Assembly: GCA_028717245.1 (NCBI GenBank)
Contig: JAQUOD010000001.1
Span: 309,324 to 373,323 of the forward strand
Length of the DNA: 64,000 bases
Direction of reading: 5' to 3'
Source: Candidatus Omnitrophota bacterium
GTDB taxonomy: Bacteria > Omnitrophota > Gorgyraeia > Gygaellales > Profunditerraquicolaceae
Below, in pieces: positions 1-51,210 of the stretch; position 1 is the stretch's first letter, and each line of letters starts with the position of its first letter. The position numbers and the translations under genes are program-made. The notes under the pieces were generated by a model. That model saw nothing but the letters and a program-made list of their open reading frames with translations. It did not search any database and was not told the DNA's origin.

Positions 1-614
1 GTCGCGGTCAATGAAGGGGAGTGAATTCAAATCGTGGTTGAGTTGAAACTTACCGGTATTTCGGATTTGGCCATCCTGGCGGTAATAAATACCCGGCTCT
101 AATAGCTGTAAGCTGCAGGCGGTAAGCGGTAAGCTTTTAAGATTATTGCATAGATTCAGTAATAAAAAGTCGTAATCGCCGCCGGTTAGGACAAAATCTA
201 CCTGGGAATTTTGGAATGATTCTTCGGGCAGGGCCGTAACGTGGTCGCCGAATAATACTATTTTAGGGACAGTCCCCTTGGTTACCCCGGGATTAGCTAT
301 CTGCGGGGACAGTCCCTTAATTTCATTAATTATCTTCCAGTGTTGTTTGATAACCGGTGTCTTGGTTTCAAAGGCAATTAAATCAGGCTCTTCCTTTTGA
401 ATAAAATCCAGGAATTGCTTGTAAGTCCAACCTTCAGCAATACCATCCAACCAGATGACTTCATGCCCGGCCTGTTTTAAAAGCGTAGCTGCCGTGGCAG
501 GGACAACCGGATAGATATAAGTAGGTTCTTTAAAGAACTGGAACTGGCGGTTTTGCCCCAGGGTCGGGTAACCCTTATGGCTATCTAACGGCGGATAAGC
601 AATTATTACTTTCA
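1..614 (-). CDS. B12-binding-domain radical SAM protein, N-terminal part (gene runs off the window start)
   Basis: Reverse-strand translation from ATG at 614: MKVIIAYPPLDSHKGYPTLGQNR...IWLDGIAEGW...FVLTGGDYDF. This resembles the cobalamin-binding N-domain of class B radical SAM enzymes. It overlaps the stop codon of the next gene. Confidence 0.55.
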
Positions 615-9120: not shown

Positions 9121-9754
9121 TTCTTATCCTTTCAATTGCTAACCTGGTATTCTTTGCGCCGAATATATAAGAACCCGCGGCTAAAATATCAGCCCCTGAT
9201 TTTATAATCCTGGCTGCTACCTTATCGTTTACTCCCCCGTCTACAGAAATATCCCCTTTAAAAATAGAGCGTAACTGCCTTATTTTTGGCAATACTGCAG
9301 GTATAAAAGATTGGCCGCTAAAGCCGGGGTTGACTGACATAACTAAAACAAAATCTACAAACCCCAGCGTTTCCTTAATTTTTGTTAAGGGTGTAGCAGG
9401 ATTCAAGGATATACCGAGCTTTATTCCCTTTTTTTTAAGCTTTACGCTTTGCGCTTTAAGCTTTGCGCTTGATATGGCTTCAATATGCACGGTAATCATA
9501 TCGCTTCCGGCACTTATAAATTCATCAATGAATTTCTGCGGGTTTTCAATCATTAAATGCACGTCTAAAGGGAGCTTTGTCACCCGGCGTATATATTTAA
9601 CCACTACCGGCCCGATGGTAATATTAGGCACAAAGTGTCCGTCCATAACATCTATGTGCAGCATATCTGCACCCGCTGACTCCACCTTTTTTATTTCCCG
9701 GGCAAGGCAGCTAAAATCCGCAGATAATATGGATGGTGCGATTTTGATTTTCAT
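9110..9754 (-). CDS. rpe: ribulose-phosphate 3-epimerase
   Basis: MKIKIAPSILSADF...HIDVMDGHFVPN. Confidence 0.92.
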   Translation of the reverse strand: MKIKIAPSILSADFSCLAREIKKVESAGADMLHIDVMDGHFVPNITIGPVVVKYIRRVTKLPLDVHLMIENPQKFIDEFISAGSDMITVHIEAISSAKLKAQSVKLKKKGIKLGISLNPATPLTKIKETLGFVDFVLVMSVNPGFSGQSFIPAVLPKIRQLRSIFKGDISVDGGVNDKVAARIIKSGADILAAGSYIFGAKNTRLAIERIRNAR

Positions 9755-10317: not shown

Positions 10318-10342
10318 ACTGATTATTGTTAAAATTAGTTCA

Positions 10343-10420
10343 TTGAGTTTATTGAGTTCATAGAGTTATTGAGTTATACATGGTTTAACTCAAAAAACTC
10401 AACAAACTCAAGTAACTCAA
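10343..10420. repeat. phased heptamer array: 4 x TTGAGTT then 4 x AACTCAA (long imperfect palindrome) between proA and nadD
   Basis: TTGAGTT at 10343, 10352, 10361 (TAGAGTT) and 10369. AACTCAA at 10387, 10396, 10405 and 10414. Spacing is 8-9 bp in both arms. Confidence 0.8.
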
Positions 10421-10424
10421 CAAA

Positions 10425-11684
10425 CTATTTTCTAATTTGTCCCTTCCCGAATATCGTATATTTATATGTCGTTAATTCTTCTAATGCCATAGGCCCCCGC
10501 GCATGCAGTTTATCCGTAGAGATACCTATCTCAGCACCCATGCCGAATTGATAACCGTCAGTAAAACGCGTGGAGGCGTTCAGATAAACACAGGCAGAAT
10601 CCACCTGCTTTAAAAAAACTTCTGCGTTCTCTTTATTATCGGTAACAATAGCATCGGAATGATGCGAACCATAATGATTAATGTGCCTGATTGCCTCTTC
10701 TAAACTATCTACGACCTTAACCGATAGGATCAAATCCAGATACTCCGTATGGTAATCTGCATCTTTTGCCTTTTTAATATTTTTCACGATTTTGCAGGTT
10801 ATAGGGCAACCGCGGATTTCCACGCCGGCTTCTTTAAATTTCTTAATCATCCCGGGTAAAAATCTTATGGCAACATCTTTATGCACGAGCATGCTCTCCA
10901 TGGCATTGCAGACTCCAGGCCGCTGAACTTTAGCGTTGTAACATAAATTTTGGGCCATATTCAGGTCTGCCCAATCGTCAACATATACATGGCAGATACC
11001 CTTGTAATGTTTTATTACCGGGATACGCGAAGTTTTGACTACGCGGTTAATCAGGCTTTCGCCGCCGCGGGGAATCACTAGGTCAATATAATCGTTTAAT
11101 TTCAGTAATATATCCACGGCCTGCCTGTCGGCAGTAGTAACCATATTAACGATGCCCGGCGAGATACCTGATCTCTTTATTACCTCTTTGAGTATCTGGT
11201 ATATGGCCAGGTTAGAATTCAGGGCCTCGCTGCCCCCTCTTAAGATAACTGCATTTGCGGATTTAAAACATAACCCGATACAATCCGCAGTCACATTAGG
11301 CCGCGACTCATAAATAATCGCGATTACGCCGATAGGCACGCGCACTTTATTTATCAGGAGGCCGCAAGGCCTGCGCCAAGCCCTCATTACTTCACCCACC
11401 GGGTCATCTAATCCGGCTATTTCTAATAAAGAGCCTGACATCTCTTCTATCCTCTTTTGGTTAAGAACGAGCCTGTCGATAAATGCAGCCGATGAGCCAT
11501 TGGCAAGAGACTTCTGTATATCCTTCTTGTTTGCTTTGAGGATAATGTTTTTATTTTTCTTTAAGGCCATGGCCATGCCCTTGAGAACTTTATTCTTCAA
11601 CGCAGAGGATACGTTAAGCATGCCTAATGATGCCTCACGGGCATTCCTGGCTATACGGATAAATTCTTCTTTCAGCTGCGCCAT
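10425..11684 (-). CDS. proA: glutamate-5-semialdehyde dehydrogenase
   Basis: 419 aa, aldehyde dehydrogenase fold; gene order proB-proA. Confidence 0.9.
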   Translation of the reverse strand: MAQLKEEFIRIARNAREASLGMLNVSSALKNKVLKGMAMALKKNKNIILKANKKDIQKSLANGSSAAFIDRLVLNQKRIEEMSGSLLEIAGLDDPVGEVMRAWRRPCGLLINKVRVPIGVIAIIYESRPNVTADCIGLCFKSANAVILRGGSEALNSNLAIYQILKEVIKRSGISPGIVNMVTTADRQAVDILLKLNDYIDLVIPRGGESLINRVVKTSRIPVIKHYKGICHVYVDDWADLNMAQNLCYNAKVQRPGVCNAMESMLVHKDVAIRFLPGMIKKFKEAGVEIRGCPITCKIVKNIKKAKDADYHTEYLDLILSVKVVDSLEEAIRHINHYGSHHSDAIVTDNKENAEVFLKQVDSACVYLNASTRFTDGYQFGMGAEIGISTDKLHARGPMALEELTTYKYTIFGKGQIRK

Positions 11685-16413: not shown

Positions 16414-16447
16414 GAATTGTTGCTTATGTTTATGGATAATATAAAAT

Positions 16448-16486
16448 AAAAAGGGCGAAGTGTTTTTTTTGCTTCGCCCTTTTATC
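16448..16486. terminator. bidirectional intrinsic terminator (GGGCGAAG-loop-CTTCGCCC flanked by A-run and T-run)
   Basis: 8-bp GC-rich stem 16453-16460/16472-16479 with T8 loop. TTTTAT follows on plus; TTTTTATTTTAT follows on minus. Terminates the pilin gene, and possibly a plus-strand transcript of copy A. Confidence 0.8.
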
Positions 16487-16508
16487 AAAACCTTCTTAAT
16501 TAACTAAT

Positions 16509-21584: not shown

Positions 21585-23849
21585 TTATCGCACTACAGAA
21601 GCTGATTGCGAGCCGGGCTTAGGCGCATGATAATCTTGATTAAAATTAAACTCCAGCTCAGGAAATGCCTTTAGCCTAAAAACAAACCAGATGCTTTCGC
21701 CGTAGCCTCTTTTAACATTGTAGGTAACATCCCAAGTCCAACAGTGTAAATCTCTGGATATGGTATATTCCTGTTCTCTTAAACCCCTGGCCCTATTCGT
21801 TTCGTGCCCCCTATAGTATCTCTGATAAGCCGAGAACTTCCATTTAGGAGTCAAGCGCCACTTTAGATCATAGGTTATTTCATTGCCGCCTTTTATCTCA
21901 TAACGCTGCCCTACCCCGAATGAGCGTTCATTCCCAAAATCAAAATTAATATCATAATTACCGTTAGAGAAATGGTTGTATTTAGGGTCAGAGCGGGCCC
22001 CGGAATGCGTATAGGTGGCATCAGCATCTATATGCATCCATGAATATGGCAAGATTCGCAAATCAAAGAGGACATCAGAGAAGCCGCTGCCCCGCTTACT
22101 CCTTCCTTCCGAGATAGATTTAGGTTTATATACATAGGAGGTATTGATGCGTAAATCCGCAAAATCCACGCTTTTATTATTACGTTTTGTCTGCAGTTTA
22201 TTGGATATTTCAAAAGCCGGAGAGTTGCTGCTGGTATCAATCGTATCTACATCATCTATCTGCCTAAGCTTAGCGCTTCCTATGGTAGGCTCGTGACGAT
22301 AGGTATAACTTACGGTAGGCGTAATGATATGCCTTAAGCCGTTTATATCTAACCCTAAAAAGTTGCTCTTTATATCAAATATACGGTAAAATTTAGTGCT
22401 CATATCCGCCCCGCCATAAAAAATAGTGCGCGGGGCTTCGTCGGAAGCGCTAACCGCCTTTTTATCGTAAAAGGTCAGGCGGTCCATAACAAAAGGAGTG
22501 AAATTGATAAAAGCTACCTTCATAGGTATGGACAGCTTATTACTGGTATCCAGCCTGTCCACGTGGGCATCAGGATTAGTATCGTTTGCCGTAGGCGTCA
22601 TGGTGCTGGTGTTCTTCTTATTATAACTGCCCGCAGAAGTAGTATCTTCAAAATAAAATGGGCTGTCTAAAATCTGGTAACTGGGCAGGCTATATTTTAC
22701 TTCGGGGAGCTTTTCCAAATAACCCGGGTCATACCAACGGTTAGTACGTTTCTGCACAAGTATATCTAAGCTGGAATAATTGAAACTGTGGTGCAATAAG
22801 GCATAACTCAGCGGTTGGCTATCCTTTTCGTATTCACGATAGAAATAATCTTTCAGAAAATTATATGTAGGGCCCTTGATCGCCATCTTAGAATCCGTAA
22901 TTTTATAATATTCTGAGGTAAAATCTGTTCTTTCGTCTATAGTCCACTTGTGCCGCCAACGGATAAGGTATCTTTGGAATATTCTGGGATTGCTATTGTC
23001 TTTGGGAAGGGTATGGTCTCTTTCCTGGGTATAATAATATTTGAAATCGCCTCTTCCGAAATTTTCACTTTTATAATTAGCCCCAAAACCTTCTGCTACG
23101 CCGAGTTTAGTGCGATAATCCAGGTAAATCCTGCCGTTGATATTATCGGTAAAGCTGTATCTCCAGGCGCTGAGCATATAAGGGCCCCATTCTTTTTTCT
23201 TACCGGGCGTTAACTGCACGTGCGCCATCGGGTCCTTCAGGTTATGGTTGTATCGGGGAAGATACAATATGGGCACCTTACCTATGTAGAAAGCATTATC
23301 CTTAGCCTGGATCTTGTCATTCGGAAAAACATCTATCTTTCCGGATTTAATACGGTAATGGGGATTATCATAACTACAAGTGGTAAAATATCCCCGGTTA
23401 GCTATAAATTCGCTATCGCTCACCTTCTCTACGTTCTCTGCCCTGCCGAAATAGGGATTAGCCCGAAAACCTGAATCAATAATAATGCCTTTCTTGGTCT
23501 GGAAATTATATTTTATTTTTTTTCCCTCTACTATCCCTTCCTTATCTTCCAGCCTGACATCGCCTTCGGCCTGTGCATCCTTAGTCTGGGTGTTTACGCT
23601 CAACTTATGGCAGGTCAGCTTGCTGCCTTTATAGATTACCGATACGTTTCCCGTAGCAGTCACTTCTTTGGCATCGGTAGAATATTCAACCGTATCGCCG
23701 TTCACAATAATAGCTTCGTCTTTTTTCTCTTGGGCGTATAAGCTGTAAGCTGTAAGCTGTAAGCTGTAAGCGAAAATAAAAAAGGACAGTGAAATCATCC
23801 TAAGAAATTTCAACTTTTGAACTGTGATTTCTAATTTATGACTTATCAC
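21585..23849 (-). CDS. lptD: LPS-assembly protein LptD (OstA family)
   Basis: 754 aa with OstA N-domain and large beta-barrel region. The annotated GTG start is doubtful; an internal ATG (MISLSFFIF...) about 16 codons downstream fits a signal peptide better. Confidence 0.8.
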   Translation of the reverse strand: MISHKLEITVQKLKFLRMISLSFFIFAYSLQLTAYSLYAQEKKDEAIIVNGDTVEYSTDAKEVTATGNVSVIYKGSKLTCHKLSVNTQTKDAQAEGDVRLEDKEGIVEGKKIKYNFQTKKGIIIDSGFRANPYFGRAENVEKVSDSEFIANRGYFTTCSYDNPHYRIKSGKIDVFPNDKIQAKDNAFYIGKVPILYLPRYNHNLKDPMAHVQLTPGKKKEWGPYMLSAWRYSFTDNINGRIYLDYRTKLGVAEGFGANYKSENFGRGDFKYYYTQERDHTLPKDNSNPRIFQRYLIRWRHKWTIDERTDFTSEYYKITDSKMAIKGPTYNFLKDYFYREYEKDSQPLSYALLHHSFNYSSLDILVQKRTNRWYDPGYLEKLPEVKYSLPSYQILDSPFYFEDTTSAGSYNKKNTSTMTPTANDTNPDAHVDRLDTSNKLSIPMKVAFINFTPFVMDRLTFYDKKAVSASDEAPRTIFYGGADMSTKFYRIFDIKSNFLGLDINGLRHIITPTVSYTYRHEPTIGSAKLRQIDDVDTIDTSSNSPAFEISNKLQTKRNNKSVDFADLRINTSYVYKPKSISEGRSKRGSGFSDVLFDLRILPYSWMHIDADATYTHSGARSDPKYNHFSNGNYDINFDFGNERSFGVGQRYEIKGGNEITYDLKWRLTPKWKFSAYQRYYRGHETNRARGLREQEYTISRDLHCWTWDVTYNVKRGYGESIWFVFRLKAFPELEFNFNQDYHAPKPGSQSASVVR

Positions 23850-23892
23850 TTATAGCTTATAGCTTATAACTTATAGCTTATAACTTATAACT
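23736..23892. repeat. two tandem short-repeat blocks at the lptD 5' end: (GCTGTAAG)x4.5 at 23740-23771 inside the coding region, and (CTTATAR)x7 at 23841-23892 across the start
   Basis: Read directly from the sequence. The in-frame octamer block encodes AYSLQLTAYSLYA in the LptD signal-peptide region. Confidence 0.9.
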
Positions 23893-24537
23893 TCACTTGG
23901 GGATTTTCTTATAATCCTCCAGGAACCTCTGGACGCCTATGTCCGTCAAGGGGTGTTTTATCAGCTGTTCGATGACGGCAAAAGGTATGGTGGCGATATC
24001 TGAGCCGATCTTTGCCGCCTCTACTACATGCAAAGGATTACGGATAGAAGCTACGATTATCTGGGTCTTAAAATTATAATTGGAGTAGACCTGTTTTATA
24101 TCGCGGATCAAATCCATTCCTACCTGGCTTATATCATCCAGCCGGCCGATAAAGGGCGATATATAGTCTGCCCCGGCCTTGGCCGCGAGTATTGCCTGTG
24201 AAGGAGAAAAACAAAGCGTAACATTTGTTTTTATTCCTTTTTCGGAAAGAATTTTTACTGCCTTAAGTCCCTCCTTAACCAGGGGAACCTTAATCACGAT
24301 ATTCTTGGCAATCTTAGAAAGCTCTAAGGCCTCAGCGACCATGCCGTTAGCTTCCAAAGATATAACCTCTGCGCTTACCGGGCCATTTACCAATGAACAT
24401 ATCTCTTTTAATAATTCGCCTGCCTTACGGTTTTCTTTTGCGATTAGGCTGGGATTGGTGGTAACCCCGTCTATGACACCTAAAGCTACTGCCTCTTTTA
24501 TATCTTTTACATTCGCGGTATCAATGAATATTTTCAC
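23893..24537 (-). CDS. tal: transaldolase (fructose-6-phosphate aldolase-like short form)
   Basis: [16 protein letters not shown]...TTNPSL; GTG start. Confidence 0.9.
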
Positions 24538-24589
24538 CCCGCTCTTCCTTTCTTATTTATACCCCTGCCCTTATTAGGAAGGGCGGGGT

Positions 24590-25516: not shown

Positions 25517-25563
25517 AGTTATTTATTCTATATGAAAGTTACGATAATTTCAATAGATAATAT

Positions 25564-25874
25564 TTTAGCGGGTCCTGCCGCGTGAGCGCCTCTCGCCAAA
25601 TTTGGCTCGAGGCATCTCCCGCGTCACCCGCTAAAGATAAATATGTCAACTTGCAACAAATGAATCTGGCGGTTTTCGAGCGAATGGAGGTTTTAGCCAA
25701 AGCAGCTTGAGTGAACGAGGGAATCCGAACGCGGAAGCATTCGGACAGCGAGGATGTTTGAGCCCGTCCTGGCGAAGCCGACGGGCGAGTTCCGCAGCTG
25801 CCGAGTTCACGAAAGACCTTTGGCGTGCCCGATAGGGCAAAACCGACTTGAGCGAGAAAATCGACAGATTCATT
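25564..25874. repeat. modular intergenic element, copy B
   Basis: Begins TTTAGCGGGTCCTGCCG and ends CAGATTCATT. Has the same core as copies A and C, plus the conserved TTTGAGC-hairpin-CGAGTTC module with a different stem sequence than A. Confidence 0.7.
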
Positions 25875-25889
25875 TGTACGGTAGGCTTG

Positions 25890-28096: not shown

Positions 28097-28152
28097 GGGT
28101 TAACTATTCCCTGCTTGAGAAGAGTCTTTGCGAGAGGGTATGGAAATTAAGT

Positions 28153-29256
28153 TTATACGATTGTTTCCTCGGTCTTCTTATCGAAAAAATGCGCCTTACT
28201 CATGTCGAAAACTACGTCCATATTCTGGTTGACCGCAGGCCTATCGTGTGCCCCTGCGCGTGCGATAAAAGTGTGTTTTCCTGTGTTCAGATAAAGGTAG
28301 ACCTCTGAACCCATCGGTTCAACCACCTCGCAGTTAACCCTGACGATATTTTCCGGCGGGGCTTCAGAAACGAATAATTTATCGTATATATCTTCGGAGC
28401 GGATGCCAAAAATGACTTCCTGGCCTATGTGGGGGTAGAGTTTCGCATACATCTCCTCTACTATCTTTACTGCGGCCCTGCCCTCATCAAAATACATGCG
28501 CCCGTTTTTTTTGATAAGCTCACCCTGCATAAAATTCATCGGCGGAGAACCGATAAATCCGGCTACGAATTTATTCCGCGGATGGTCATAAACCGTCATC
28601 GGGTCTGCCACCTGCTGCAGGAGGCCGTCTTTCATGACCGCAATCCTGTCGCCCATAGTCATAGCCTCTACCTGGTCATGGGTAACGTATATTATCGTTG
28701 ACTGCAGCCTGATATGGAGCTTGTGTATTTCTGTACGCATCTGAACCCTTAGTTTTGCATCCAGGTTGCTGAGGGGTTCGTCAAATAGAAACACTAAAGG
28801 CTTCCTCACGATTGTCCTGCCTACGGCAACGCGCTGCCTTTCGCCGCCGGAGAGCTCCCGGGGCTTACGGTTCAGCAGGTGTTTTATGCCTAAAATATCC
28901 GCTGCCTCATTAACCCGCCGGACAATCTCATTTTTAGGATAACCCCTTAGTTTCAAACCAAAGGCCATATTCTCAAATACGCTAAAATGCGGATAAATGG
29001 CATAGTTCTGGAAGACCATGGCGATATCGCGGTCTTTTGCCGGAATATCATTTACCAGTTTATCGCCTATATATACCTCGCCTTCACTTATTTCCTCTAA
29101 ACCGGCAATCATCCTCAAGGTCGTAGATTTCCCGCAGCCGGATGGCCCTACCAATATCATAAATTCCTTATTCTCCACCCCTAAATCTATGCTGTCCACT
29201 ACCTTTACGCCGTTACTAAAGACCTTAGAAACTCTTTTCAGGCTCACTTGCGCCAT
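28153..29256 (-). CDS. ABC transporter ATP-binding protein (MalK/UgpC/MsiK-type with TOBE domain)
   Basis: GPSGCGKST Walker A, LSGGERQRVAV signature, Walker B DEPLSNLD. Confidence 0.9.
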   Translation of the reverse strand: MAQVSLKRVSKVFSNGVKVVDSIDLGVENKEFMILVGPSGCGKSTTLRMIAGLEEISEGEVYIGDKLVNDIPAKDRDIAMVFQNYAIYPHFSVFENMAFGLKLRGYPKNEIVRRVNEAADILGIKHLLNRKPRELSGGERQRVAVGRTIVRKPLVFLFDEPLSNLDAKLRVQMRTEIHKLHIRLQSTIIYVTHDQVEAMTMGDRIAVMKDGLLQQVADPMTVYDHPRNKFVAGFIGSPPMNFMQGELIKKNGRMYFDEGRAAVKIVEEMYAKLYPHIGQEVIFGIRSEDIYDKLFVSEAPPENIVRVNCEVVEPMGSEVYLYLNTGKHTFIARAGAHDRPAVNQNMDVVFDMSKAHFFDKKTEETIV

Positions 29257-29279
29257 TTGTCCTCGCTTCGCTCAGTATG

Positions 29280-30119
29280 TCAACTTAAATAATCCAGTAA
29301 TTGGCCGAGCGTCGCCTTTAAACTCTTACGTTGCACTATCATATCAATTAAACCGTGCTGCAGGAGGAACTCCGAACGCTGGAACCCCGCAGGCAATTTC
29401 TGCCTGATAGTCTGTTCAATGACCCGGGGGCCGGTAAAACCTATCAGGGCTTTTGGCTCGGCAATAATTATATCCCCTAATCCCGCAAATGACGCCATAA
29501 CCCCGGCCATAGTAGGGTCAGTGAGGACGGAAATATAAGGTAATTTCTCCTGATGGTGATAATAGAGCGCGGCTGAGGTCTTGGCCATCTGCATCAGGCT
29601 AAACATCCCTTCATACATCCGAGCTCCGCCGCCTGAACCGGAAACAATAATCAAGGGGAGCCTGTTTTTTGTTGCCGCTTCAATGGCGCGGGTTATCTTT
29701 TCTCCCACAACCGTGCCCATCGAACCCATAATAAAACGGGAATCCGTGACGGCAAGGATTGCTTTTTTATTTTCCAAGAGGCCCTCGCCGGTTATTACCG
29801 CCTCTTTTAATCCTGTCGCGGCTTTATCCTGCTCTAATTTCTCCGGGTAAGTCTTTGGCCCTTTAAAATCCAGCGGGTCAGAAGATAGCATATCTTTATC
29901 ATACTCCTGGAACGTATCTTTATCTAAAAGCATGTTTATTCTCTCATAAGCGCCCAGCACAAAATGATAATTACATTTCGGGCAGACTTTCAGGTTCTCG
30001 TCCAGGGTCTTATTATATAAAGCCTCTGAGCAGGCCTCGCATTTTGTCCAGAGCCCGTCAGGGATCTCTTTCTTCTTAAGCCTTACGATTGTGTATTTGG
30101 GTTTACCAAAGAGTGCCAT
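29280..30119 (-). CDS. accD: acetyl-CoA carboxylase carboxyltransferase subunit beta
   Basis: N-terminal zinc ribbon CEACSEALYNK...CPKCNYH plus carboxyltransferase domain. Confidence 0.9.
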   Translation of the reverse strand: MALFGKPKYTIVRLKKKEIPDGLWTKCEACSEALYNKTLDENLKVCPKCNYHFVLGAYERINMLLDKDTFQEYDKDMLSSDPLDFKGPKTYPEKLEQDKAATGLKEAVITGEGLLENKKAILAVTDSRFIMGSMGTVVGEKITRAIEAATKNRLPLIIVSGSGGGARMYEGMFSLMQMAKTSAALYYHHQEKLPYISVLTDPTMAGVMASFAGLGDIIIAEPKALIGFTGPRVIEQTIRQKLPAGFQRSEFLLQHGLIDMIVQRKSLKATLGQLLDYLS

Positions 30120-30144
30120 TTTCCCGTATTGTGTATCGCGTTAT

Positions 30145-30162
30145 GCGTATTGCGCAATACGC
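30145..30162. promoter_or_regulatory. perfect 18-bp palindrome GCGTATTGCGCAATACGC upstream of accD, embedded in CGCAATAC/GTATTGCG repeats
   Basis: The sequence reads identically on both strands. Extra copies of the 8-mer lie at 30166-30174 and, degenerate, at 30125-30140. Confidence 0.75.
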
Positions 30163-30180
30163 CATACGCAATACTCGCTC

Positions 30181-31458
30181 CTAATCACCATGTTTATTAA
30201 TTACCAGCCCCGATAATACCTTCGGATAGAAATAAGTAGATTTAGGCGGCATCTTCTGGCCGGTTAAGGCCACGGAAATTATCTGCTGGATTTTCACCGG
30301 GTTCAAAAAGAAGGCAATATATGTATTATCACTATCTACTCTATCAATCAATTCCTGTGCATGGGGACTATAGGCGATATTCTCCTGATCACCCGCGCCC
30401 ATCCCCATGGCCTTTTTAAAAATCAGGTGGTTTAATATAGAAACGTCCAATGACCTCACCGAGTGGGGTTTATCGCTGATTATCTTATCCAGGATCTTGA
30501 TATTCTTTAAACGCAGGAGCCAGTATTTCTTATCATAATACATACCCAAGGCATGTTCGCTCTGCCCGCCTTTTGCCAGAAGGAAGAAGAAACGCGTTCT
30601 ATCCTTAATCTCCTCCATCTCAAAGAAGTCTTTGATATTCTCTCTAAAATTTTCCATATCCAGCCTATGGTCTAATTTTATCAGGCGGTGGATAGGTAAT
30701 ATAGTAAGGCCGCCGGGGTTTGTATTGGTAAAATAAGCCAGGGTATAATCGAAATCCGCTTCCTGCGCGCTGCCACCTAACTTTTTCCTCATCTCGTCCC
30801 TGTAAATACAGGATACTTCATAACGGTGGTGGCCATCCGCGATAAAGATGCTTTCGTTTTGCATCTTGGATTTTATGCTATCCAAAATATCAGGAGAATC
30901 CAGCCTCCATAGCCTATGGTTGACTTTTTCTTTATCTACTATATCAATAAAAGGCTTCTCATCCTGAATATGTTGATTGATACCAGAGATAATACGTTTT
31001 TTATCGGAGAAAATCACAAATATGGGGCTTAGATTCGCCTTAACGCTTTTAAGCAATTTCAGCCTATCTTCCTTGGGTTCAAGGCGGGTATGTTCATGCC
31101 CGTATATAGCTGTTTTTTTATCCTCCAGGTACAAACGCGCGATAAACCCCAGGCGGGTCTTTTTCTCTCCCTTAATATTATACTGCTGGCTATAAAAATA
31201 TATTGCCGGCGACCTGTCTGGGTTGAGTATCTTATTCTTTTGCCACTCCTTAAAAAGATACGCCGCGCGCCGATACTTATCTTCACCGGGGATATCTTTA
31301 CCTAAAAGTATATGAATGAAGTTATGGGGATTAAGATCGTGATAGTATTGCTGTTGCGCAGGCGAGATGACATCATAGGGCGGGCAGACAACAGAAGAAA
31401 GGTCATTGGTCTCTCCCGGATTATAAATAAGCGCTCTAAAAGGCTCTATCTTTGCCAT
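30181..31458 (-). CDS. DUF1015 family protein
   Basis: MAKIEPFRALIYNPGE is a typical DUF1015 N-terminus; 425 aa. Confidence 0.7.
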   Translation of the reverse strand: MAKIEPFRALIYNPGETNDLSSVVCPPYDVISPAQQQYYHDLNPHNFIHILLGKDIPGEDKYRRAAYLFKEWQKNKILNPDRSPAIYFYSQQYNIKGEKKTRLGFIARLYLEDKKTAIYGHEHTRLEPKEDRLKLLKSVKANLSPIFVIFSDKKRIISGINQHIQDEKPFIDIVDKEKVNHRLWRLDSPDILDSIKSKMQNESIFIADGHHRYEVSCIYRDEMRKKLGGSAQEADFDYTLAYFTNTNPGGLTILPIHRLIKLDHRLDMENFRENIKDFFEMEEIKDRTRFFFLLAKGGQSEHALGMYYDKKYWLLRLKNIKILDKIISDKPHSVRSLDVSILNHLIFKKAMGMGAGDQENIAYSPHAQELIDRVDSDNTYIAFFLNPVKIQQIISVALTGQKMPPKSTYFYPKVLSGLVINKHGD

Positions 31459-31476
31459 AGTTTAGCTAGAGAGTTC

Positions 31477-31737
31477 TTATTTGTGCGGACAGGACTTACA
31501 ACCGTCTTTGGCTTGCGCGCAGGCCTTGCTCGGATTATGTCCGGAGGCAGGCGGATTTTTACGGTAATCCGTCGCATAAAATCCTTTACCCTTAAAGATT
31601 ACGCCCGAACCCGAACCTATAAGCCGCCTGATTTTTTGATTACATTTAGGGCATTTAGTTAATGCCGCTGCGGTCATTTTCTGGAAAAGCTCAAATTGGT
31701 GCCCGCAATGCGTACATTCGTATTCGTAGGTTGGCAC
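31477..31737 (-). CDS. FmdB-family zinc-ribbon protein
   Basis: YECTHCGHQFE...CPKCNQ dual CxxC; 86 aa. Confidence 0.75.
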   Translation of the reverse strand: MPTYEYECTHCGHQFELFQKMTAAALTKCPKCNQKIRRLIGSGSGVIFKGKGFYATDYRKNPPASGHNPSKACAQAKDGCKSCPHK

Positions 31738-31760
31738 TTGTTCATTCCTTTTTTATAATA

Positions 31761-31834
31761 AAGTATCAAGGTGTCAATGTGTCAGAGTATCAAAGTAAAA
31801 CTTTGACACTTTGATACCTTGACACTCTGATACA
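31761..31834. repeat. phased heptamer array: 4 x GTRTCAR then 4 x YTGAYAC (imperfect palindrome) between dnaJ stop and FmdB start
   Basis: GTATCAA 31763, GTGTCAA 31771, GTGTCAG 31780, GTATCAA 31787. TTGACAC 31802, TTGATAC 31811, TTGACAC 31819, CTGATAC 31827. Confidence 0.75.
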
Positions 31835-32998
31835 TTATTTAAATGCTTTCTTTATCCTATCGACAACGCCTTCCCTGTTTATGTCTTCACCCGACGATCT
31901 GGCAAAATCTTCTATGAGCCGGCGTTGCTCTAAAGTTAAACGCGTAGGGATTTCAACCGTTACTCTAACCAGTTCATCGCCTATATCCCTGCTATGTACA
32001 TCGGGTATGCCTTTCTCCCTAAGCCGGAAAATTTTTCCGCTTTGCGTGCCAGGGGGTATCTTCATTTCAACATGGCCATTGAGCGTAGGAACCTCTATCT
32101 CAGAGCCTAATATCGCTTTCGTTAAGCTGATAGTTACTCCAGTTAATATATCATTATTGTGCCTTTGAAAAACCGGATGCGGCCTTACCTCAATAACTAC
32201 ATATAAATCGCCTCTGCCGGCAGTGCCGGATTCTCCCTCTCCCCGTATCCTCAAATGCGAATCCGTATCTACTCCGGCGGGGATCTTCACTTTAATCTTA
32301 CGCGTTACCTTAGTCCTGCCTTGCCCGCGGCATTGCGGGCAGGGCGCTTGTATAATCGAACCTTCTCCGCCGCAGCGCGAACAGGCCTGGGCCAGCTGAA
32401 AAAAACCGTTAGAGACTACTGTACGGCCCGAACCTTTACACTGAGAACAGGTAACCTTTTTAGTGCCCGGTTTTGCTCCGCTGCCCGCGCATACCTGACA
32501 TGTTTCATAGCGGGGCACATTAATAGTCTTTTCCGTACCGCTGGCTGCTTCTTCCAAAGTTATATTCAATGCAATCTCTAAATCTCTCCCGCGGCGCGCA
32601 GCACGTCCTGTGCCCTGACGGCCCCTGCCGCCGAAAATATCATAGCCTAAATCGCTGAATATTTCGTCAAATAACCCGCCTCCTACGCCAAAGTCTCCCA
32701 GGTCCTGGAATACGCTGTTAAAATCTGCCCCCTTAAAAATATCTTCATAGGCATATTTCTGATCTATCCCGGAATGGCCATACTGGTCATAAAGGGCCCG
32801 CTTTTGAGAATCAGAAAGTACCGCATAAGCTTCGGAAATTTCTTTGAACTTCTCTTCTGCTTCTTTTTTTTGCTCGTGAGGCACCCTGTCCGGATGATAA
32901 CGCAGGGCCATCTCCCGATAGGCCTTCTTTATTTCATCCAGACTGGCACTCTTTTTGACTCCCAGGATTTCGTAATAATCACGTTTTGTAGTCGGCAT
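31835..32998 (-). CDS. dnaJ: molecular chaperone DnaJ
   Basis: J-domain HPD, G/F region, four CxxCxGxG zinc repeats. Confidence 0.95.
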
Positions 32999-33007
32999 TC
33001 TTAGTTT

Positions 33008-33046
33008 TAAGCTGTAAGCTTTAAGCTTACGGCTTACTGCTTAAGA
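33008..33046. repeat. GTAAG-family heptamer tandem repeat / hairpin in the dnaK-dnaJ intergenic region
   Basis: AGCTGTAAGCTTTAAGCTTACGGCTTACTGCTTAAGACTTACC. Contains a 9-bp stem GCTGTAAGC/GCTTACGGC with loop TTTAA. Confidence 0.7.
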
Positions 33047-34960
33047 CTTACCACTTTTATCATCTTCTTCCTTAAAATCCGCGTCTATAATATCTTCGTC
33101 TTTTCCGCCGGAGGCGGATCCGCCTTCGGCGGACTTCTTATCCTCTGGCTCTTCAGTTTGCTCCTGGCCTCTTGCACCTTGCGCCTGGCCCTGTTGCTGC
33201 TGTTTCTGCGCTGCCTGCTTATATATTTCTTCTGCTAATTTATGCGAGGCCTTGGTTAAATCCTCTGAGCCCCTTTTGATCCTATCAACGTTCTTATCTT
33301 TTATAGCTGCCTTAAGGTCATTGAGCTTTGCTTCTATATCTAAGCGCTCTGCCTGGGAGACTTTATCGCCGAATTCTTTCAGGGATTTCTCCGTAGCGTA
33401 AACAAGATTGTCTGCCTGGTTAATGACTTCTACTTCTTCTTTCTTCTTTGTGTCTTCGGCGGCAAACTTTTCCGCATCCCTGACCATCTTATCGATTTCT
33501 TCTTTAGAGAGCTTCTTGGGTGCGGTAATGCGTATGGATTGTTCTTTGCCTGTGCCTAAATCCTTGGCAGAAACGTGCACAATCCCGTCACGGTCAATAT
33601 CAAATTTTACCTCTATCTGCGGAACGCCGCGCGGAGCCGCGGGAATACCTACCAGGTCAAACCTGCCCAATTCCACGTTATCATCGGCCATCTGGCGTTC
33701 GCCCTGAAGCACGCGGATAGTCACCGCCGTCTGATTATCGGCAGCTGTGGAAAATATCTGGCTCTTTTGCGTAGGGATAGATGCGTTTCTTTCAATCAAT
33801 TTTGTATCTACTCCGCCTAAGGTTTCAATACCGAGGGATAGCGGGGTAACATCCAAAAGCAATACATCTTTAACATCCCCCTTTATAATCGCTGCCTGTA
33901 TTGCAGCGCCTAAGGCAACGCACTCCATGGGGTCGACTCCGCGCTCTATTTTCTTGCCGACATAATCCTCGACAAATTTCTGCACGATAGGCATACGCGT
34001 AGGCCCGCCGACCATGATAATCCTGTCTATATCTTTGGGCGTCAATTTGGCATCGCTGATTGCCTGCTCCATGGGGTGGCGGCACCGGTCAATTATAGGC
34101 GAAATCAAATCCTCTAATTTTGCGCGGGTGATGGTCATGGTTAAATGCTTAGGGCCGGTGGCGTCTGCCGTGATAAAAGGTAAATTGATATCCGTGCTTA
34201 CCGTAGAGGATAATTCTATCTTGGCCTTCTCCGCTGCCTCGCGTAACCTCTGCACAGCCATCTTGTCATTCATCAGGTCTATCCCGGTTTCGCGTTTAAA
34301 TTGCCCGGCAATATGTTCAAGTAATACCTTATCCATATCTGTGCCGCCTAATTGCGTATCGCCTGATGTTGACTGCACATGGAATACGCCTTGAGCCATT
34401 TCCATTATAGTGACATCCAGGGTTCCGCCGCCTAAATCAAAGACCATGATCTTCTGCTCTTTCTGCGCTTTTTCAAGGCCATAAGCCAGGCAGGCTGCGG
34501 TCGGTTCGTTTATAATCCTTAATACTCTTAAACCCGCTATTTCACCGGCATCCTTAGTAGCTGTCCTCTGGTTATCATCAAAATATGCGGGGCAGGTAAT
34601 TACCACTTCCTCAACTTTATCTCCGAGATACGCCTCCGCATCCTGCTTTATCTTTTGCAGGATAAAAGCGGAGATCTGTTGCGGCGTATATTCCTTGCCG
34701 AAAACTTTAAACTTAAAGTCAGTACCCATCTTACGTTTAGCAGCTTGTATAGTACCTTCTGCGTTAATTGCTGCCTGGCGCCTAGCCGGCTCGCCGACTA
34801 AACGCTGGCCGTCTTTGGTAAAAGCAACGTAAGAAGGGAATGCCTTGCCTGATGCCACGCCCGCGCCTTCGGCAGACGGGATTATTACGGGCCTGCCGCC
34901 TTCCATCACTGCTGCTGCCGAGTTAGATGTCCCTAAGTCAATACCTATCACTTTAGCCAT
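33041..34960 (-). CDS. dnaK: molecular chaperone DnaK
   Basis: [16 protein letters not shown] and VGGPTRMP Hsp70 signatures. Confidence 0.97.
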
Positions 34961-34987
34961 ATTGCACCTCCGTAAATTTTAAATTAT

Positions 34988-35080
34988 CCAATTGCTAAAT
35001 CCCAATTAATTTCCAATTATTCAATTACCAATTGTAGAATTGGGCATTGGTAATTTATTGGACATTGGAAATTGGGAATT
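34988..35080. repeat. CCAATT/AATTGG palindromic element, copy 1, in the dnaK leader
   Basis: 4-5 x CCAATT, then 5 x ATTGG inverted. About 93 percent identical over about 95 nt to the copy at 51105-51210. Confidence 0.85.
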
Positions 35081-35087
35081 ATAAAAT

Positions 35088-35639
35088 TTATTTCTGTTTA
35101 CTAACCTTCACTTTCGCCGTCCTGATAATCCGGTCATTCAATAAATAACCTTTTTGTAATTCCTCTATAACGGTGTGCTCCGGCACATCAATGTCTTCTG
35201 CCTGCATCAGCGCTTCGTGGTAATGCGGGTCAAATAACTTACCCTCTGCCTCGATGGGTTTAACCCCGTATTCTTTCAGCATTTCGTAAAGATGCGCCAG
35301 GATCATTTCTACGCCTTTTAAAAAAACCGGCAGGTCCTGGTGTTTAGACTGGGCTAATTCCACAGTGCGCTCTAAATCATCCAGTATATTTAATAATTCT
35401 AGAATAATGCCTTCGTTAGCAAATTTTACAAAATCCTGCTTTTCCTTCTCTAAACGCTTACGCGTATTATCAAAATCAGCCTGCAGCCGCAGCAACCTGT
35501 CCCAGTATTCCTTAGCTTTTTCTGCCTCTTCCTTTAACTTCAGGTATTCGGATTCTGGCAAAGAAACGGTCTTTTCTTCTTTTGCGGGCGCTTCGGTGTG
35601 CTTTTTATCCTCTTGCTGATTTTGTTTCTGGGGCTGCAT
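35088..35639 (-). CDS. grpE: nucleotide exchange factor GrpE (start placed at internal ATG with SD)
   Basis: The ORF track extends to 35798, but AAGGATGACGATG gives an SD plus ATG at 35639. GrpE coiled-coil and beta domain follow. Confidence 0.85.
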   Translation of the reverse strand: MQPQKQNQQEDKKHTEAPAKEEKTVSLPESEYLKLKEEAEKAKEYWDRLLRLQADFDNTRKRLEKEKQDFVKFANEGIILELLNILDDLERTVELAQSKHQDLPVFLKGVEMILAHLYEMLKEYGVKPIEAEGKLFDPHYHEALMQAEDIDVPEHTVIEELQKGYLLNDRIIRTAKVKVSKQK

Positions 35640-35647
35640 CGTCATCC

Positions 35648-36385
35648 TTAAATGCTGTCGATAACCTCTGTTAAAACATCCGATATGTAACCTAATGCGG
35701 GAATAGCGTGTTCGTATTCCATGCGCATCGGCCCTAAAACCGCAAGCCTGCCTGCGCTTTTGTCCTTTAGACGGTAAGTAGAAACGACCAGGGAACAACC
35801 GTTCATTTCAGGGCACTCTAATTCTTCGCCGATATAGACCTTTACCTTATCATTAAAGTCACGGTTGATAATATCCAGTAAGTACTGCCTGTCTTCGATA
35901 GTCTTGATTAAAAGGCGTATCCTCCGGGAATCCTGAAATTCCGGCTGTTTTAAAACAAGGCTTATGCCTTTATAAAAAAACTTATCCTGCCACTCTGGGA
36001 AATAAGCTATCCCCGTATAATGCGTGATTTCAGATATAATCTGTGAAGTCTTATCCAGGATATCCTCTAACCGGTTTATTTTTTTCTTATATTCCCTGCT
36101 AATATGTTCTTTTTCTTCTGCCACAAGCTCTATTTGCGAAAGCAGAAAATCTACATAGTAACGGTACCCCTTAACCGTAGGTATCCTTCCTCCGGAAGTA
36201 TAAAGGTGCGTAAGGTAATTTGCCTCCTCCAGCTCAGCTAATATACTTCTTATAGTAGCCGGGCTTAAGTCAAAATCCCTGGCAATATCCTCCGAGGCTA
36301 CCGGTTCTGCGTCCTGGATATACTTATTAATAGTTGCGGCAAGAATCGCCCTTCTTCTAGACTCGTAATCAACTGTCTTAACCAT
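35648..36385 (-). CDS. hrcA: heat-inducible transcription repressor HrcA
   Basis: N-terminal wHTH RRRAILAATINKYIQDAEPVAS...SPATIRSILAELE. CIRCE operators lie upstream. Confidence 0.88.
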   Translation of the reverse strand: MVKTVDYESRRRAILAATINKYIQDAEPVASEDIARDFDLSPATIRSILAELEEANYLTHLYTSGGRIPTVKGYRYYVDFLLSQIELVAEEKEHISREYKKKINRLEDILDKTSQIISEITHYTGIAYFPEWQDKFFYKGISLVLKQPEFQDSRRIRLLIKTIEDRQYLLDIINRDFNDKVKVYIGEELECPEMNGCSLVVSTYRLKDKSAGRLAVLGPMRMEYEHAIPALGYISDVLTEVIDSI

Positions 36386-36400
36386 AGATCACCCCACCTT

Positions 36401-36427
36401 TTAGCGCTTCCACCATAAGAATGCTAA
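36401..36427. promoter_or_regulatory. CIRCE operator 2 (TTAGCGCTT-N9-GAATGCTAA), immediately downstream of the hrcA promoter -10
   Basis: Matches the CIRCE consensus TTAGCACTC-N9-GAGTGCTAA at 14/18 arm positions. Promoter TTGACA (36456-36461) -16- TAGAAT (36434-36439) on the minus strand. Confidence 0.8.
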
Positions 36428-36492
36428 AAGTTAATTCTAACATAATTTTCCGCTTTGTCAATCCAGCTCTTTATCGAGATATACTATATAAT

Positions 36493-36519
36493 TTAGCGCC
36501 CTCAACCATAGAGTGCTAA
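36493..36519. promoter_or_regulatory. CIRCE operator 1 (TTAGCGCCC-N9-GAGTGCTAA)
   Basis: 15/18 arm matches to the CIRCE consensus. Located upstream of the -35 element. Confidence 0.8.
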
Positions 36520-36536
36520 TGACAATTTAAAAAAAA

Positions 36537-36800
36537 TTATTCCTCTGTTTCTTTTTCTAGGATTATCCTTATACCATGAATATTCACGCGTTTTTCTTCC
36601 ATGAGATAATGCACATACTCTAATTTCTTTACATCCTTTAAAGAATAAAGCCGGTTCTTTTTACCTATTCTCTTGGGGCAAACCAGCCCTGCCTTATCCA
36701 GCTGGCGTAAAGTCCACGCCGGCAGGTCCACTAATTTGCTGACCACGCTGATTACATAAACAGGCTCATCAGGACTAATACGGATATCAAATAAAGGCAT
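36537..36800 (-). CDS. MerR-family regulator, HspR-like
   Basis: 87 aa. VYVISVVSKLVDLPAWTLRQLDKAGLV...YSLKDVKKLEYVHYLMEEKRVNIHGIRIILE aligns by eye with HspR/MerR HTH plus the conserved GV(N)LAG(I/V)(R/K)(I/R)(I/V)LEL region. Confidence 0.65.
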   Translation of the reverse strand: MPLFDIRISPDEPVYVISVVSKLVDLPAWTLRQLDKAGLVCPKRIGKKNRLYSLKDVKKLEYVHYLMEEKRVNIHGIRIILEKETEE

Positions 36801-36887
36801 TCTTCTCTCCCTTTGCTTCTTTGATTATTATGTATAACATAAAATAATAATTTTGTCAAGGAAAATTAATAAAATTTATTAGATATT

Positions 36888-38147: not shown

Positions 38148-38171
38148 AATTATTCCTCTATAACTATAACA

Positions 38172-39086: not shown

Positions 39087-39094
39087 AAAAAGCT

Positions 39095-39895
39095 TTAAGG
39101 AATGATCTTTGTGGGATAACCTTCGCCTGAAAGTCGATTTTCTAATTGCGTTGCTTCCGAGCGTAACTTTAATCTTCCGACCTTAACCCGGTAGACCCTG
39201 GCATCATTCATCTGGGCCTCTTCGGTATAGGCATCGTATCCTCTCTTGATTAATTTATCGCGTAGATTCCCGGCATTTGAGGCCTTTGCAAACGAGCCTA
39301 CCTGTACGGTATAGTATATATCCGTAAGAGAATACAGTTCCTTATCTAATTTTACTTCAAGGCTGGAAGGAAAATTTTTCTTTAGTTTGTCCAGGTATTC
39401 TTTTGCCTGCTGGGTATCCCCTGTCTTGAATCCGATCTGGCTGAGCCGGTAATAAAGCGAAGCGGTAAATCTTGTGCGGGGGTCAACATTTAAGAGTTCT
39501 TTGTAGTAATCTTGCGCCTTAACGTATTCGCCTCTTAGGAAATAAGTGTCGCCTAACCCTACCTGCGCGCCTTCCGTAAAAGGGCTATTTTTGAATTCTT
39601 TAAGTAATATTTCAAATATATCCGAAGCACGCAGATAATTACCGTCCTTAAGATAACTTAAGGCCAGTATATAATACAGCTCTTCCAGGCCAGAATGGCT
39701 GCCGCTATAATTAGCTAAGGCCTTTTCGCCTGCTGATATAGCGGACTTGTAATCGCCGTTTAAAAAGGAAACCTTAACCTTATCAATATCTAAGGCATAA
39801 GCACTGTTACAAATCACAATACACAATACACAAATTATAAATAATACCCATTTCCGTAAGCTGTAAGTGGTAAGCTGTAAGCCGTAATTTAACAT
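39095..39895 (-). CDS. TPR-repeat protein with C-terminal SPOR (peptidoglycan-binding) domain
   Basis: TPR motifs. C-terminal YTVQVGSF...YRVKVGRL matches SPOR. The N-terminus is encoded by a GTAAG heptamer repeat. Confidence 0.7.
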   Translation of the reverse strand: MLNYGLQLTTYSLRKWVLFIICVLCIVICNSAYALDIDKVKVSFLNGDYKSAISAGEKALANYSGSHSGLEELYYILALSYLKDGNYLRASDIFEILLKEFKNSPFTEGAQVGLGDTYFLRGEYVKAQDYYKELLNVDPRTRFTASLYYRLSQIGFKTGDTQQAKEYLDKLKKNFPSSLEVKLDKELYSLTDIYYTVQVGSFAKASNAGNLRDKLIKRGYDAYTEEAQMNDARVYRVKVGRLKLRSEATQLENRLSGEGYPTKIIP

Positions 39896-51095: not shown

Positions 51096-51104
51096 AATTC
51101 AATT

Positions 51105-51210
51105 TCCAATTAGCCAATTGCCAAATCCCAATTAATTTCCAATTATTCAATTACCAATTGTAAAATCGGTCATTGGTAATTTATTTGACATTGGAAATTG
51201 GTAATTGGCC
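51105..51210. repeat. CCAATT/AATTGG palindromic element, copy 2; its right arm encodes the last 10 codons and the stop of lipA
   Basis: Near-identical to copy 1. The lipA frame reads through ATTGG repeats to TAA at 51181. Confidence 0.85.

Follow-up and report, generated by a model that had tools for sequence, protein, structure and literature searches.

Heptanucleotide tandem arrays and array hairpins at gene ends in a genome segment of a Candidatus Omnitrophota bacterium

The dnaK-dnaJ junction of a Candidatus Omnitrophota bacterium (GCA_028717245.1, contig JAQUOD010000001.1) carries a block of GTAAG-type tandem repeats, one of several such blocks in the 64,000-nt stretch of DNA analysed here (positions 309,324-373,323, forward strand; referred to as the window). 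Omnitrophota is a candidate phylum with small, gene-dense genomes. All credible open reading frames (ORFs, ≥100 aa) of the window are encoded on the minus strand across the 64 kb, with numerous start/stop overlaps; the gene-strand bias is extreme and the genome appears very compact. GC skew is uniformly negative without any change of sign, and the window covers one replichore only. DnaK (33041-34960, minus strand) shares at most 90 % identity with proteins of Candidatus Omnitrophota metagenome-assembled genomes (MAGs). Gene order in many relatives is as in the window, i.e., a MiaB-like gene, a TPR-SPOR gene, dnaK-dnaJ and, further on, a transaldolase and an LptD-like gene. The comparison set comprised the window and 80 related loci with 10-kb flanks (1.30 Mb in total; loci are denoted by L numbers). 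Arrays were called by Tandem Repeats Finder (TRF) at score cut-offs of ≥30 and ≥42, with a Markov shuffle as control. Scans of the window against Rfam (gathering thresholds) and for tRNAs returned no matches.

Arrays and array hairpins of the window

Period-7 arrays were called by TRF at each of the five places where an earlier note on this DNA had located simple-sequence tandem repeats of the GTAAG family (Table 1). Their unit is 7 nt and never 8: GTAAG-N2-GTAAG occurs at exact 7-nt spacing in seven forward and one reverse case (0.02 expected in the window), and GTAAG does not recur at 6-, 8- or 9-nt spacing anywhere in the window. The proposed octanucleotide unit GCTGTAAG (8 occurrences in the window versus 0.6 expected) is therefore the heptamer TGTAAGC read over the unit border. 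Arrays with 7-9-nt units in the window fall into at least six unit families, of which GTAAG is one.

At the dnaK-dnaJ junction, GTAAGC units are followed by GCTTAC units; the block is an inverted pair, contrary to the single orientation that had been claimed for it. In the mRNA, the 5' arm, (GUAAGNC)n, takes in the last dnaK codons together with the TAA stop, while the 3' arm, (GCUUANA)n, ends ~10 nt upstream of the dnaJ ATG. The predicted fold has a free energy of -17.1 kcal/mol (z -2.87).

A perfect array lies in the LptD-like gene. Read on the minus strand as GCTTACA units, it encodes AYSLQLTAYSL within the signal peptide (MISLSFFIFAYSLQLTAYSLYA, followed after the cleavage point by QEKK) of a 754-aa LptD/LptC-like protein, where this stretch lies in the hydrophobic and cleavage region. 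A CTTATAR block, supposedly a variant in the same orientation, is indeed present and fills the spacer from the transaldolase stop to the LptD start, but its unit GCTTATA is a reverse-complement variant of TGTAAGC and the block represents the inverted partner of the perfect array. Its mRNA, (UAUAAGC)n, constitutes the 5' arm and pairs with (GCUUACA)n (3' arm) 75 nt downstream, forming a predicted stem of ~35 bp (23739-23893; -44.7 kcal/mol, z -4.92) composed of 6-bp helices with one A.C mismatch per unit. The ribosome-binding site and the LptD start codon are located within the ~75-nt loop.

Arrays do overlap the first codons in both the LptD-like and the TPR-SPOR gene, as described previously, and the reading of AYSLQLT-type peptides in the LptD-like signal peptide and the TPR-SPOR N-terminus was confirmed as well. 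In case of the TPR-SPOR gene, whose start ATG overlaps the stop codon of the MiaB-like gene preceding it, a solitary array encodes NYGLQLTTYSL and thereby extends the N-terminus (MLNYGLQLTTYSL-RKWVLFIIC...) ahead of a signal peptide of the form RK..hydrophobic..AYA. The hydrophobic core of this signal peptide (ICVLCIVIC) is itself encoded by a second heptamer array. The block at 105-137, assigned earlier to a gene boundary, is instead located within a B12-binding radical-SAM gene, ~480 nt (~160 codons) from its start at 615; the gene runs off the window, and the array encodes KSLPLTACSLQL in the linker after the B12-binding domain. Solitary coding arrays are unfolded (z ~0; -0.12 for the first TPR-SPOR array). 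A weak additional member in the ribulose-phosphate 3-epimerase gene was judged marginal (fold z 0.03) and may be a chance periodicity of a helix-coding stretch.

Strand-fixed occurrence, as claimed for the whole family, holds for the three solitary GTAAG arrays, which share one orientation and all lie inside minus-strand ORFs, but not for the two non-coding loci, which show the inverse or both orientations. Replication, transcription and reading-frame orientation are inseparable in the window, since all ORFs are on the minus strand and the sign of the GC skew is constant. In the minus-strand reading, (GCTTACA)n, i.e., GCT-TAC-AGC-TTA-CAG-CTT-ACA, is open in three frames, while (TGTAAGC)n brings TAA in frame within three units. 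A heptamer array visits every frame within three units, and a gene can therefore tolerate just one of the two array orientations. Minus-strand genes and the stop-free GCTTACA reading thus create the apparent strand polarity of GTAAG arrays as a by-product.

A polar genomic signal (Chi, KOPS or a DNA-uptake-like sequence such as DUS), or iterons for one sequence-specific protein, would account for the common orientation of the solitary arrays. This explanation is hardly credible, however, as the orientation within ORFs is forced by stop avoidance and both orientations are present at the dnaK-dnaJ junction. GTAAGC copies outside the arrays amount to 13 in forward orientation, with 12.9 expected for the whole window, and to 12 in reverse orientation. 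The earlier note had itself tied such a signal to over-representation and strand skew, and the proposal fails on this measure because single GTAAGC is neither enriched nor skewed within the 64 kb. A single site-specific recognition sequence, also considered there, is unlikely, since neighbouring junctions use the unrelated units CCAATTN, CGTATTG, GTATCAAA and GAGTTNATT, and relatives use yet other units at the same dnaK-dnaJ junction.

Table 1. Tandem arrays and array hairpins in the window (z, fold z-score)
Feature	Location	Position	Strand	Remarks
Heptamer hairpin (GTAAG family)	Spacer from dnaK stop to dnaJ start	33006..33051	-	TRF 33006-33028 and 33025-33051; HSP70 and DnaJ Pfam matches
Perfect (TAAGCTG)x4.7	LptD-like gene	23739..23771	-	TRF, 100 % matches, score 66; LptC-related Pfam match
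(GCTTATA/ACTTATA)x8.9	Spacer from transaldolase stop to LptD start	23832..23893	-	TRF; inverted score 17-19
(GTAAGCT)x4.6, solitary	TPR-SPOR gene	39856..39887	-	TRF, 80 % matches
Second heptamer array, (GTATTGT)n on sense strand	TPR-SPOR gene	39809..39834	-	TRF period 7, 3.7 copies
(GCNGTAA)x4.4, in frame	B12-binding radical-SAM gene	102..137 (TRF 104-134)	-	79 % matches
GCTTTAN, weak extra member	Ribulose-phosphate 3-epimerase gene	9434..9470	-	TRF; family D1, 71 % identical to reference array
(CCAATTN)n/(NAATTGG)n hairpin, copy 1	grpE-dnaK spacer	34975..35080	-	TRF; family D2
CCAATTN hairpin, copy 2	Spacer between lipoyl synthase (lipA) and thioredoxin-reductase-like (trxB-like) genes	51101..51206	-	z -4.18
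8-nt-unit hairpin GUAUCARA/UYUGAUAC	Directly past dnaJ stop	31760..31833	-	-35.6 kcal/mol, z -7.40
Heptamer hairpin CGTATTG/CAATACG	Spacer between DUF1015 and accD-like genes	30125..30174	-	z -4.96
9-nt-unit hairpin GAGTTNATT/AACTCAANA	Spacer between aldehyde-dehydrogenase-like and cytidylyltransferase-like genes	10337..10426	-	-40.4 kcal/mol, z -9.45

An array combined with its reverse-complement array is contained in 7 of the 22 window spacers of at least 40 nt. The units of these hairpins are unrelated (GAGTTNATT, CGTATTG, GTATCARA, GTAAGCT and CCAATTN). Their stems consist of 5-7-bp helices parted by one or two mismatches per unit, fold z-scores on the mRNA strand range from -2.9 to -9.5, and most stems abut the next start codon. 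The two CCAATTN hairpins are 92 % identical over 106 nt, with sharp boundaries and unrelated flanks. Terminator-like array hairpins were not called between 22000 and 41000, and a T-tail was absent from the sequences inspected; missing the T-run after the stem, the hairpins were ruled out as intrinsic (Rho-independent) terminators. Integron attC sites were likewise rejected, as judged by gene context: the flanking genes are core genes whose order is conserved in relatives whether or not a hairpin is present.

The spacer upstream of hrcA (36386-36887) contains two CIRCE-like inverted repeats (TTAGCGC-N-GTGCTAA type), recognized by eye, as well as the best sigma-70-like promoter of the region 22000-41000 (TTGACA-16-TAGAAT with TG; 36461-36434, minus strand). 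Both are consistent with an HrcA-controlled hrcA-grpE-dnaK-dnaJ operon, which would hold three array hairpins.

Arrays in related genomes

Across the comparison set, a subset of Omnitrophota genomes shows a strong excess of arrays with 7-nt and, less frequently, 8-9-nt units. At a TRF score of ≥30, period-7 arrays number 160 versus 31 in the Markov shuffle; at ≥42, there are 45 arrays of period 7, compared to 9, 10 and 1 of periods 8, 9 and 6, respectively. ORF boundaries lie within 60 nt of 73 % of the period-7 arrays (16 % of random positions), and an inverted partner is found within 150 nt of 34 of 74 period-7 and 9 of 15 period-8 arrays; among the 165 control arrays (periods 6-11), 1 has such a partner. 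Array density is uneven (chi-square 284, 80 df): 51 of the 81 sequences are array-free, while L009 contains 10 arrays in 22 kb. A unit family is common to 22 % of same-genome array pairs versus 4.7 % of between-genome pairs (p = 7e-10); recurring units are AACAGAG at five loci of L009 and GTAAGC at five of the window. Array lengths display a secondary peak at 31-33 nt (~4.4-4.7 units), comprising 24 of the 160 arrays, while the neighbouring classes of 28-30 and 34-36 nt contain 9 and 4 arrays, respectively; taken from raw counts only, this would agree with the addition of three units to a seed of ~1.5 units.

About 11 of 39 dnaK-dnaJ junctions in relatives carry an array hairpin, each built from a different unit (including GGTTCAN, TTTTCAG, CAGCTGA, AGAGAAC, AAAAGTN and GGAGCTT), and the remaining spacers measure 0-15 nt. 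The junction is a permissive site with repeated independent hairpin gains. Since the same junctions are empty in most genomes and differently filled in others, presence/absence comparisons and searches for genomic correlates are feasible.

Within coding sequences, the linker of the MiaB-like protein is the only ORF site with array-free orthologues for comparison. Behind the conserved K-K-L-S-A, L020 and L069 carry (AGCTNTC)x4.6 and L001 (CGGTTCT)x4.4, each array adding 21 nt (3 units = 7 codons) relative to the window and L010. In L020/L069, the beginning of the array lies in the conserved KLSA codons, which indicates growth in situ and with preservation of the frame. The TPR-SPOR orthologues of L019, L004 and L020 have arrays of other units in their signal peptides, and the orthologue of L025 lacks the N-terminal extension. 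The LptD-like orthologue of L009 also has a signal-peptide array with another unit. Its interpretation as a clean insertion relative to L001 was dismissed, as the signal peptides are of equal length and L001 contains a degenerate copy of the array; this case would rather represent array persistence or homogenisation than a de novo gain. Co-option of arms as N-termini, with stop-bearing 5' arms and open 3' arms, was likewise rejected (113 versus 115 stop trinucleotides, p = 0.86). Both hairpin arms fall within predicted coding sequence at L004 4504-4560 (MiaB-like linker) and L020 4432-4502 (TPR-SPOR start). In case of the latter, the N-terminus is signal-peptide-like; its charged stretch (TKELKNLRTEEP) comes from the A-rich arm and its hydrophobic stretch (FFRSFVLSFFRF) from the T-rich arm complementary to it.

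The radical-SAM linker is hypervariable in length, ranging from 2 to 40 residues among homologues, several of which possess 7-aa periodic peptides (NYQLPITNYQLP, RPTTNDQRPN). Such a 7-residue periodicity is the signature of three heptamers. Many gene calls for radical-SAM homologues (P0010, P0013, P0007 etc.) are truncated to 164-290 aa on contigs of up to 2.1 Mb, and some of them end at or shortly past the repeat-bearing linker. The heptamer arrays, or a palindromic element of this lineage (see below), may cause frameshifts, assembly errors or real gene disruption in this linker.

Origin of the arrays and rival explanations

With a probability of roughly 60 %, the GTAAG blocks are heptanucleotide simple-sequence repeats (SSRs) of the kind known as short tandemly repeated repetitive (STRR) or long SSR (LSSR) sequences, generated by DNA-level slippage and inverted copying and filtered by selection. 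The arrays display every testable defining feature of this class, i.e., a tandem 7-nt unit in at least three copies, an excess of period 7, a position at gene ends and genome-specific units. Replication slippage in a 7-nt register would act on local proto-repeats, such as the K-L-S-A codons or the Lys-stop end AAG-TAA-GC. Inverted partners could then arise by fold-back or template-switch copying, and a whole hairpin can occasionally be copied to an unrelated junction. Selection would eliminate all insertions except those in spacers and tolerant coding segments (signal peptides, linkers). We infer both this mechanism of slippage plus template switching and any effect on expression. Residing presumably inside polycistronic mRNAs (e.g., hrcA-grpE-dnaK-dnaJ) and having no U-tail, the hairpins are further inferred by us to probably modulate mRNA processing, stability or translational coupling rather than to terminate transcription.

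Complementarity of the arms provides a further indication. Among 42 hairpins between co-directional genes, 36 mismatched positions would be G.U in the sense and 29 in the antisense reading (p = 0.46); the majority (82) would be wobble pairs in neither. Moreover, arms are homogenised separately, often with one systematic mismatch per unit. Since wobble is strand-symmetric and the arms are separately homogenised, a DNA-level origin of the complementarity is favoured; the symmetry neither proves nor excludes an RNA role.

Several observations weigh against slippage as the sole or sufficient source. Recurrence of a unit family at several loci of one genome is unexplained by slippage alone, and so is the inverted array 75 nt away across the LptD start. 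The gain of three units in essential-looking genes lacks frameshifted intermediates; slippage does not explain it, and it would need a multi-unit burst or some unknown process. Local growth accounts for part of the picture only, since the CCAATTN hairpin recurs with 92 % identity at a second, unrelated junction. The sense fold is more stable than the antisense fold in 23 versus 11 hairpins (p ~0.06), a weak hint of selection at the RNA level. Furthermore, the dnaK-dnaJ hairpins of L044 and L054 are ~88 % identical, while identity at the 4-fold degenerate sites of the two genes is only 31-39 %; this hints at constraint, an argument tempered by the immediate coding flanks being ~85 % identical as well. 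Finally, ~22 kb were sampled per relative, so that counts are not whole-genome counts, and array differences were compared between species only (presence/absence; +21 nt in one ORF). Same-species sequence was found neither by exact DnaK look-up nor by a metagenome scan with the DUF1015 protein (best match 72 % aa identity).

One may speculate that the arrays are the output of an active, lineage-restricted DNA process rather than of passive slippage, although this is doubtful. Such a process would add several 7-nt units in one step (+21 nt in essential-looking genes), place an inverted copy nearby and occasionally a copy elsewhere. It would operate in only some Omnitrophota, and its output could be co-opted as intercistronic RNA stems and new signal-peptide segments. 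If true, it would offer a handle on why heptamers dominate bacterial long SSRs.

Alternatively, the hairpins could be selected intercistronic RNA elements, i.e., RNase III/processing sites, 3'-end stabilisers or translational-coupling gates. This explanation is possible but clearly less probable than repeats of DNA-level origin. By way of example, they might, tentatively, set the dnaK:dnaJ ratio or mask and unmask the LptD start, with the repetitive build easing the tuning of stem length. Agreeing with such a role, they fill spacers of the apparent hrcA-grpE-dnaK-dnaJ operon, for which the best promoter-like site lies upstream of hrcA only, they have very strong fold z-scores, and they end 0-12 nt before the next start, several by-eye examples being without a clear Shine-Dalgarno sequence. 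The repeated gains at the dnaK-dnaJ junction, the L044/L054 conservation and the excess of stronger sense folds point in the same direction, and (ATCTTTC)n of Haemophilus influenzae provides an experimental precedent (PMC12721329). Yet a sense-specific wobble signature is absent, and the systematic per-unit mismatch means that pairing is not optimised. Most relatives have no hairpin at the same junctions, the solitary arrays in ORFs are unfolded, and the propensity to form arrays is genome-wide and not gene-specific.

Small non-autonomous mobile elements copied by an enzyme, similar to repetitive extragenic palindromic (REP) sequences, REPINs or MITEs (miniature inverted-repeat transposable elements), with same-unit arrays deriving from one master copy, appear unlikely. 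Neither length nor sequence of the hairpins is fixed, and apart from the two CCAATTN copies all are unique in sequence, with a different unit at nearly every junction. That pair, with its sharp boundaries at unrelated junctions, speaks for mobility, but its boundaries show no array-independent terminal inverted repeats and no target-site duplications. No transposase or RAYT domain was detected in Pfam scans of part of the window genes. Unit families do recur within a genome, and another palindromic element of the lineage, the GGGGACAGTCCCC pairs located inside ORFs, is clearly dispersed; against this, the MiaB-like array starting in conserved local codons indicates in-situ growth.

If the tracts were contingency loci, one-unit changes would toggle expression of two envelope proteins (LptD-like and TPR-SPOR), in the manner of the CTCTT tract that opa genes of Neisseria carry in their signal-peptide region. 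The unit length is not a multiple of 3, two envelope proteins have tracts in their signal-peptide coding regions, and the LptD tract is 100 % perfect over 4.7 units, making it a possible exception. For the family as a whole, the contingency role considered in the earlier note is a poor and very improbable fit. Two tracts lie outside 5' coding regions, and members of the family are also present in the dnaK-dnaJ spacer and the radical-SAM linker. The genes in or near which arrays are found are of housekeeping character (dnaK/dnaJ, LptD-like, MiaB-like, radical-SAM) and not of the dispensable surface or host-interaction type; the LptD-like protein is expected to be essential by analogy with LptD of other diderm bacteria, which also counts against switching. 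Tracts are short (4-5 units) and, outside the LptD gene, imperfect (79-87 % matches), and MiaB-like orthologues with and without an array differ by in-frame 21 nt instead of frameshifts.

Relation to known repeats and other repeat elements

Heptamer tandem repeats were reportedly described in cyanobacteria by Mazel et al. in 1990, and later in Xanthomonas and Beggiatoaceae. Their origin and function are without an accepted account, and the Omnitrophota arrays add the same kind of repeat from a new phylum; a literature search retrieved no papers on Omnitrophota repeats. The clear presence/absence contrasts between genomes, the prevalence of inverted pairs and the entry of arrays into coding sequence are relevant to this long-standing puzzle. 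Heptamers represent the most abundant long-SSR unit category in most repeat-rich genomes (Mrazek 2007, as cited in PMC4679880 and PMC4692102). In common with STRR sequences of Calothrix/Nostoc, Nostoc GGGGAYT and Xanthomonas GGGAATC repeats, the Omnitrophota arrays have a 7-nt unit in few to ~10 copies with period 7 dominant, an intergenic location near gene ends, genome-specific units, a patchy distribution and presence/absence at orthologous spacers. Many convergent inverted pairs with possible stem-loops are shared with Xanthomonas (PMC4692102), where there are 70 such cases among the 186 repeat patterns of Xcc and 75 among the 183 of Xac (PMC4692102). In contrast to these systems, Omnitrophota genomes contain several unrelated unit families rather than one dominant G-rich unit, the hairpin form is in the majority, and arrays repeatedly enter ORFs (signal peptides, linkers). 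The units are AT-rich and unable to form G-quadruplexes.

TAACTGA repeats of marine Beggiatoaceae, some cyanobacteria and Bacteroidetes (MacGregor 2015, PMC4679880) resemble the present arrays in forming short heptamer sets directly upstream of starts, including those of essential genes, and in occasional ORF arrays; between strains, they show indels in 7-nt steps (PMC4679880). However, they use one fixed genome-wide unit in 169 direct sets versus 1 inverted set (PMC4679880), whereas Omnitrophota have many units and about half inverted pairs.

The (ATCTTTC)n SSR of H. influenzae supplies one arm of a hairpin in the 5'-UTR of hmw1A, and this hairpin is both an RNase III substrate and a control element of hmw1A expression (PMC12721329), so that structures of this type are known to be capable of either function. 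Its closest analogue in the window is the stem around the LptD-like start, both being located upstream of an envelope-protein gene. The hmw1A hairpin comprises at least 10 repeats and a non-repeat G-rich other arm, with proven phase variation in a host-adapted pathogen (PMC12721329). The stem at the LptD-like start differs in having 4-9 units, both arms made of arrays and a translated 3' arm, and is known here from sequence alone.

Repeats of the REP/BIME, REPIN and MITE types are intergenic hairpin repeats between co-directional genes that are thought to affect mRNA stability, features recalling the Omnitrophota hairpins. The latter lack a conserved family sequence and length and have internally tandem arms, the one dispersed 92 %-identical pair being a point of likeness. 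For annotation, it is relevant that arrays distort start-codon calls and create odd N-terminal extensions; in MAGs, some contig breaks or truncated gene calls may stem from them as well.

Rickettsia palindromic elements (RPEs), reportedly described by Ogata et al. in 2000, are said to be dispersed 100-150-bp elements of conserved sequence inserted in frame at permissive protein sites. The coding inserts of Omnitrophota share the occurrence of in-frame repeats at permissive sites, but are local heptamer arrays of ~21-33 nt. A better RPE analogue is found in a separate palindrome, GGGGAC(A/T)GTCCCC (GGGGACAGTCCCC pairs), which looks like an RPE-like mobile palindrome inserting in protein linkers. 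Its pairs are spaced 6-50 nt apart and mostly flanked by A-runs and T-runs (e.g., AAAATGGGGACAGTCCCCAAAAGGCGGGGACAGTCCCCATTTT). In the window it occurs at 266-276 and 306-316 (2 matches versus 0.01 expected), in frame within the radical-SAM ORF, and encodes KGLSPQIANPGVTKGTVPK. In relatives it is present in L004 (4310-4862), L021 (1512-4214), L057 (3586-4092), L081 (724-3583), L025 (458-484) and L026 (4392-4419). The sequence is near-identical across genomes, and several pairs in relatives lie within the span of the MiaB-like gene.

A further dispersed family at 16032-16413, 25567-25874 and 57449-57511 (partial) consists of a GC-rich, apparently structured element (GCGGGTCCTGCC...CACCCGCTAAAGATAAATATG) with no Rfam match at gathering thresholds. 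It is followed by paralogous ORFs of ~104 aa (16171-16488 and 25646-25957) without Pfam matches.

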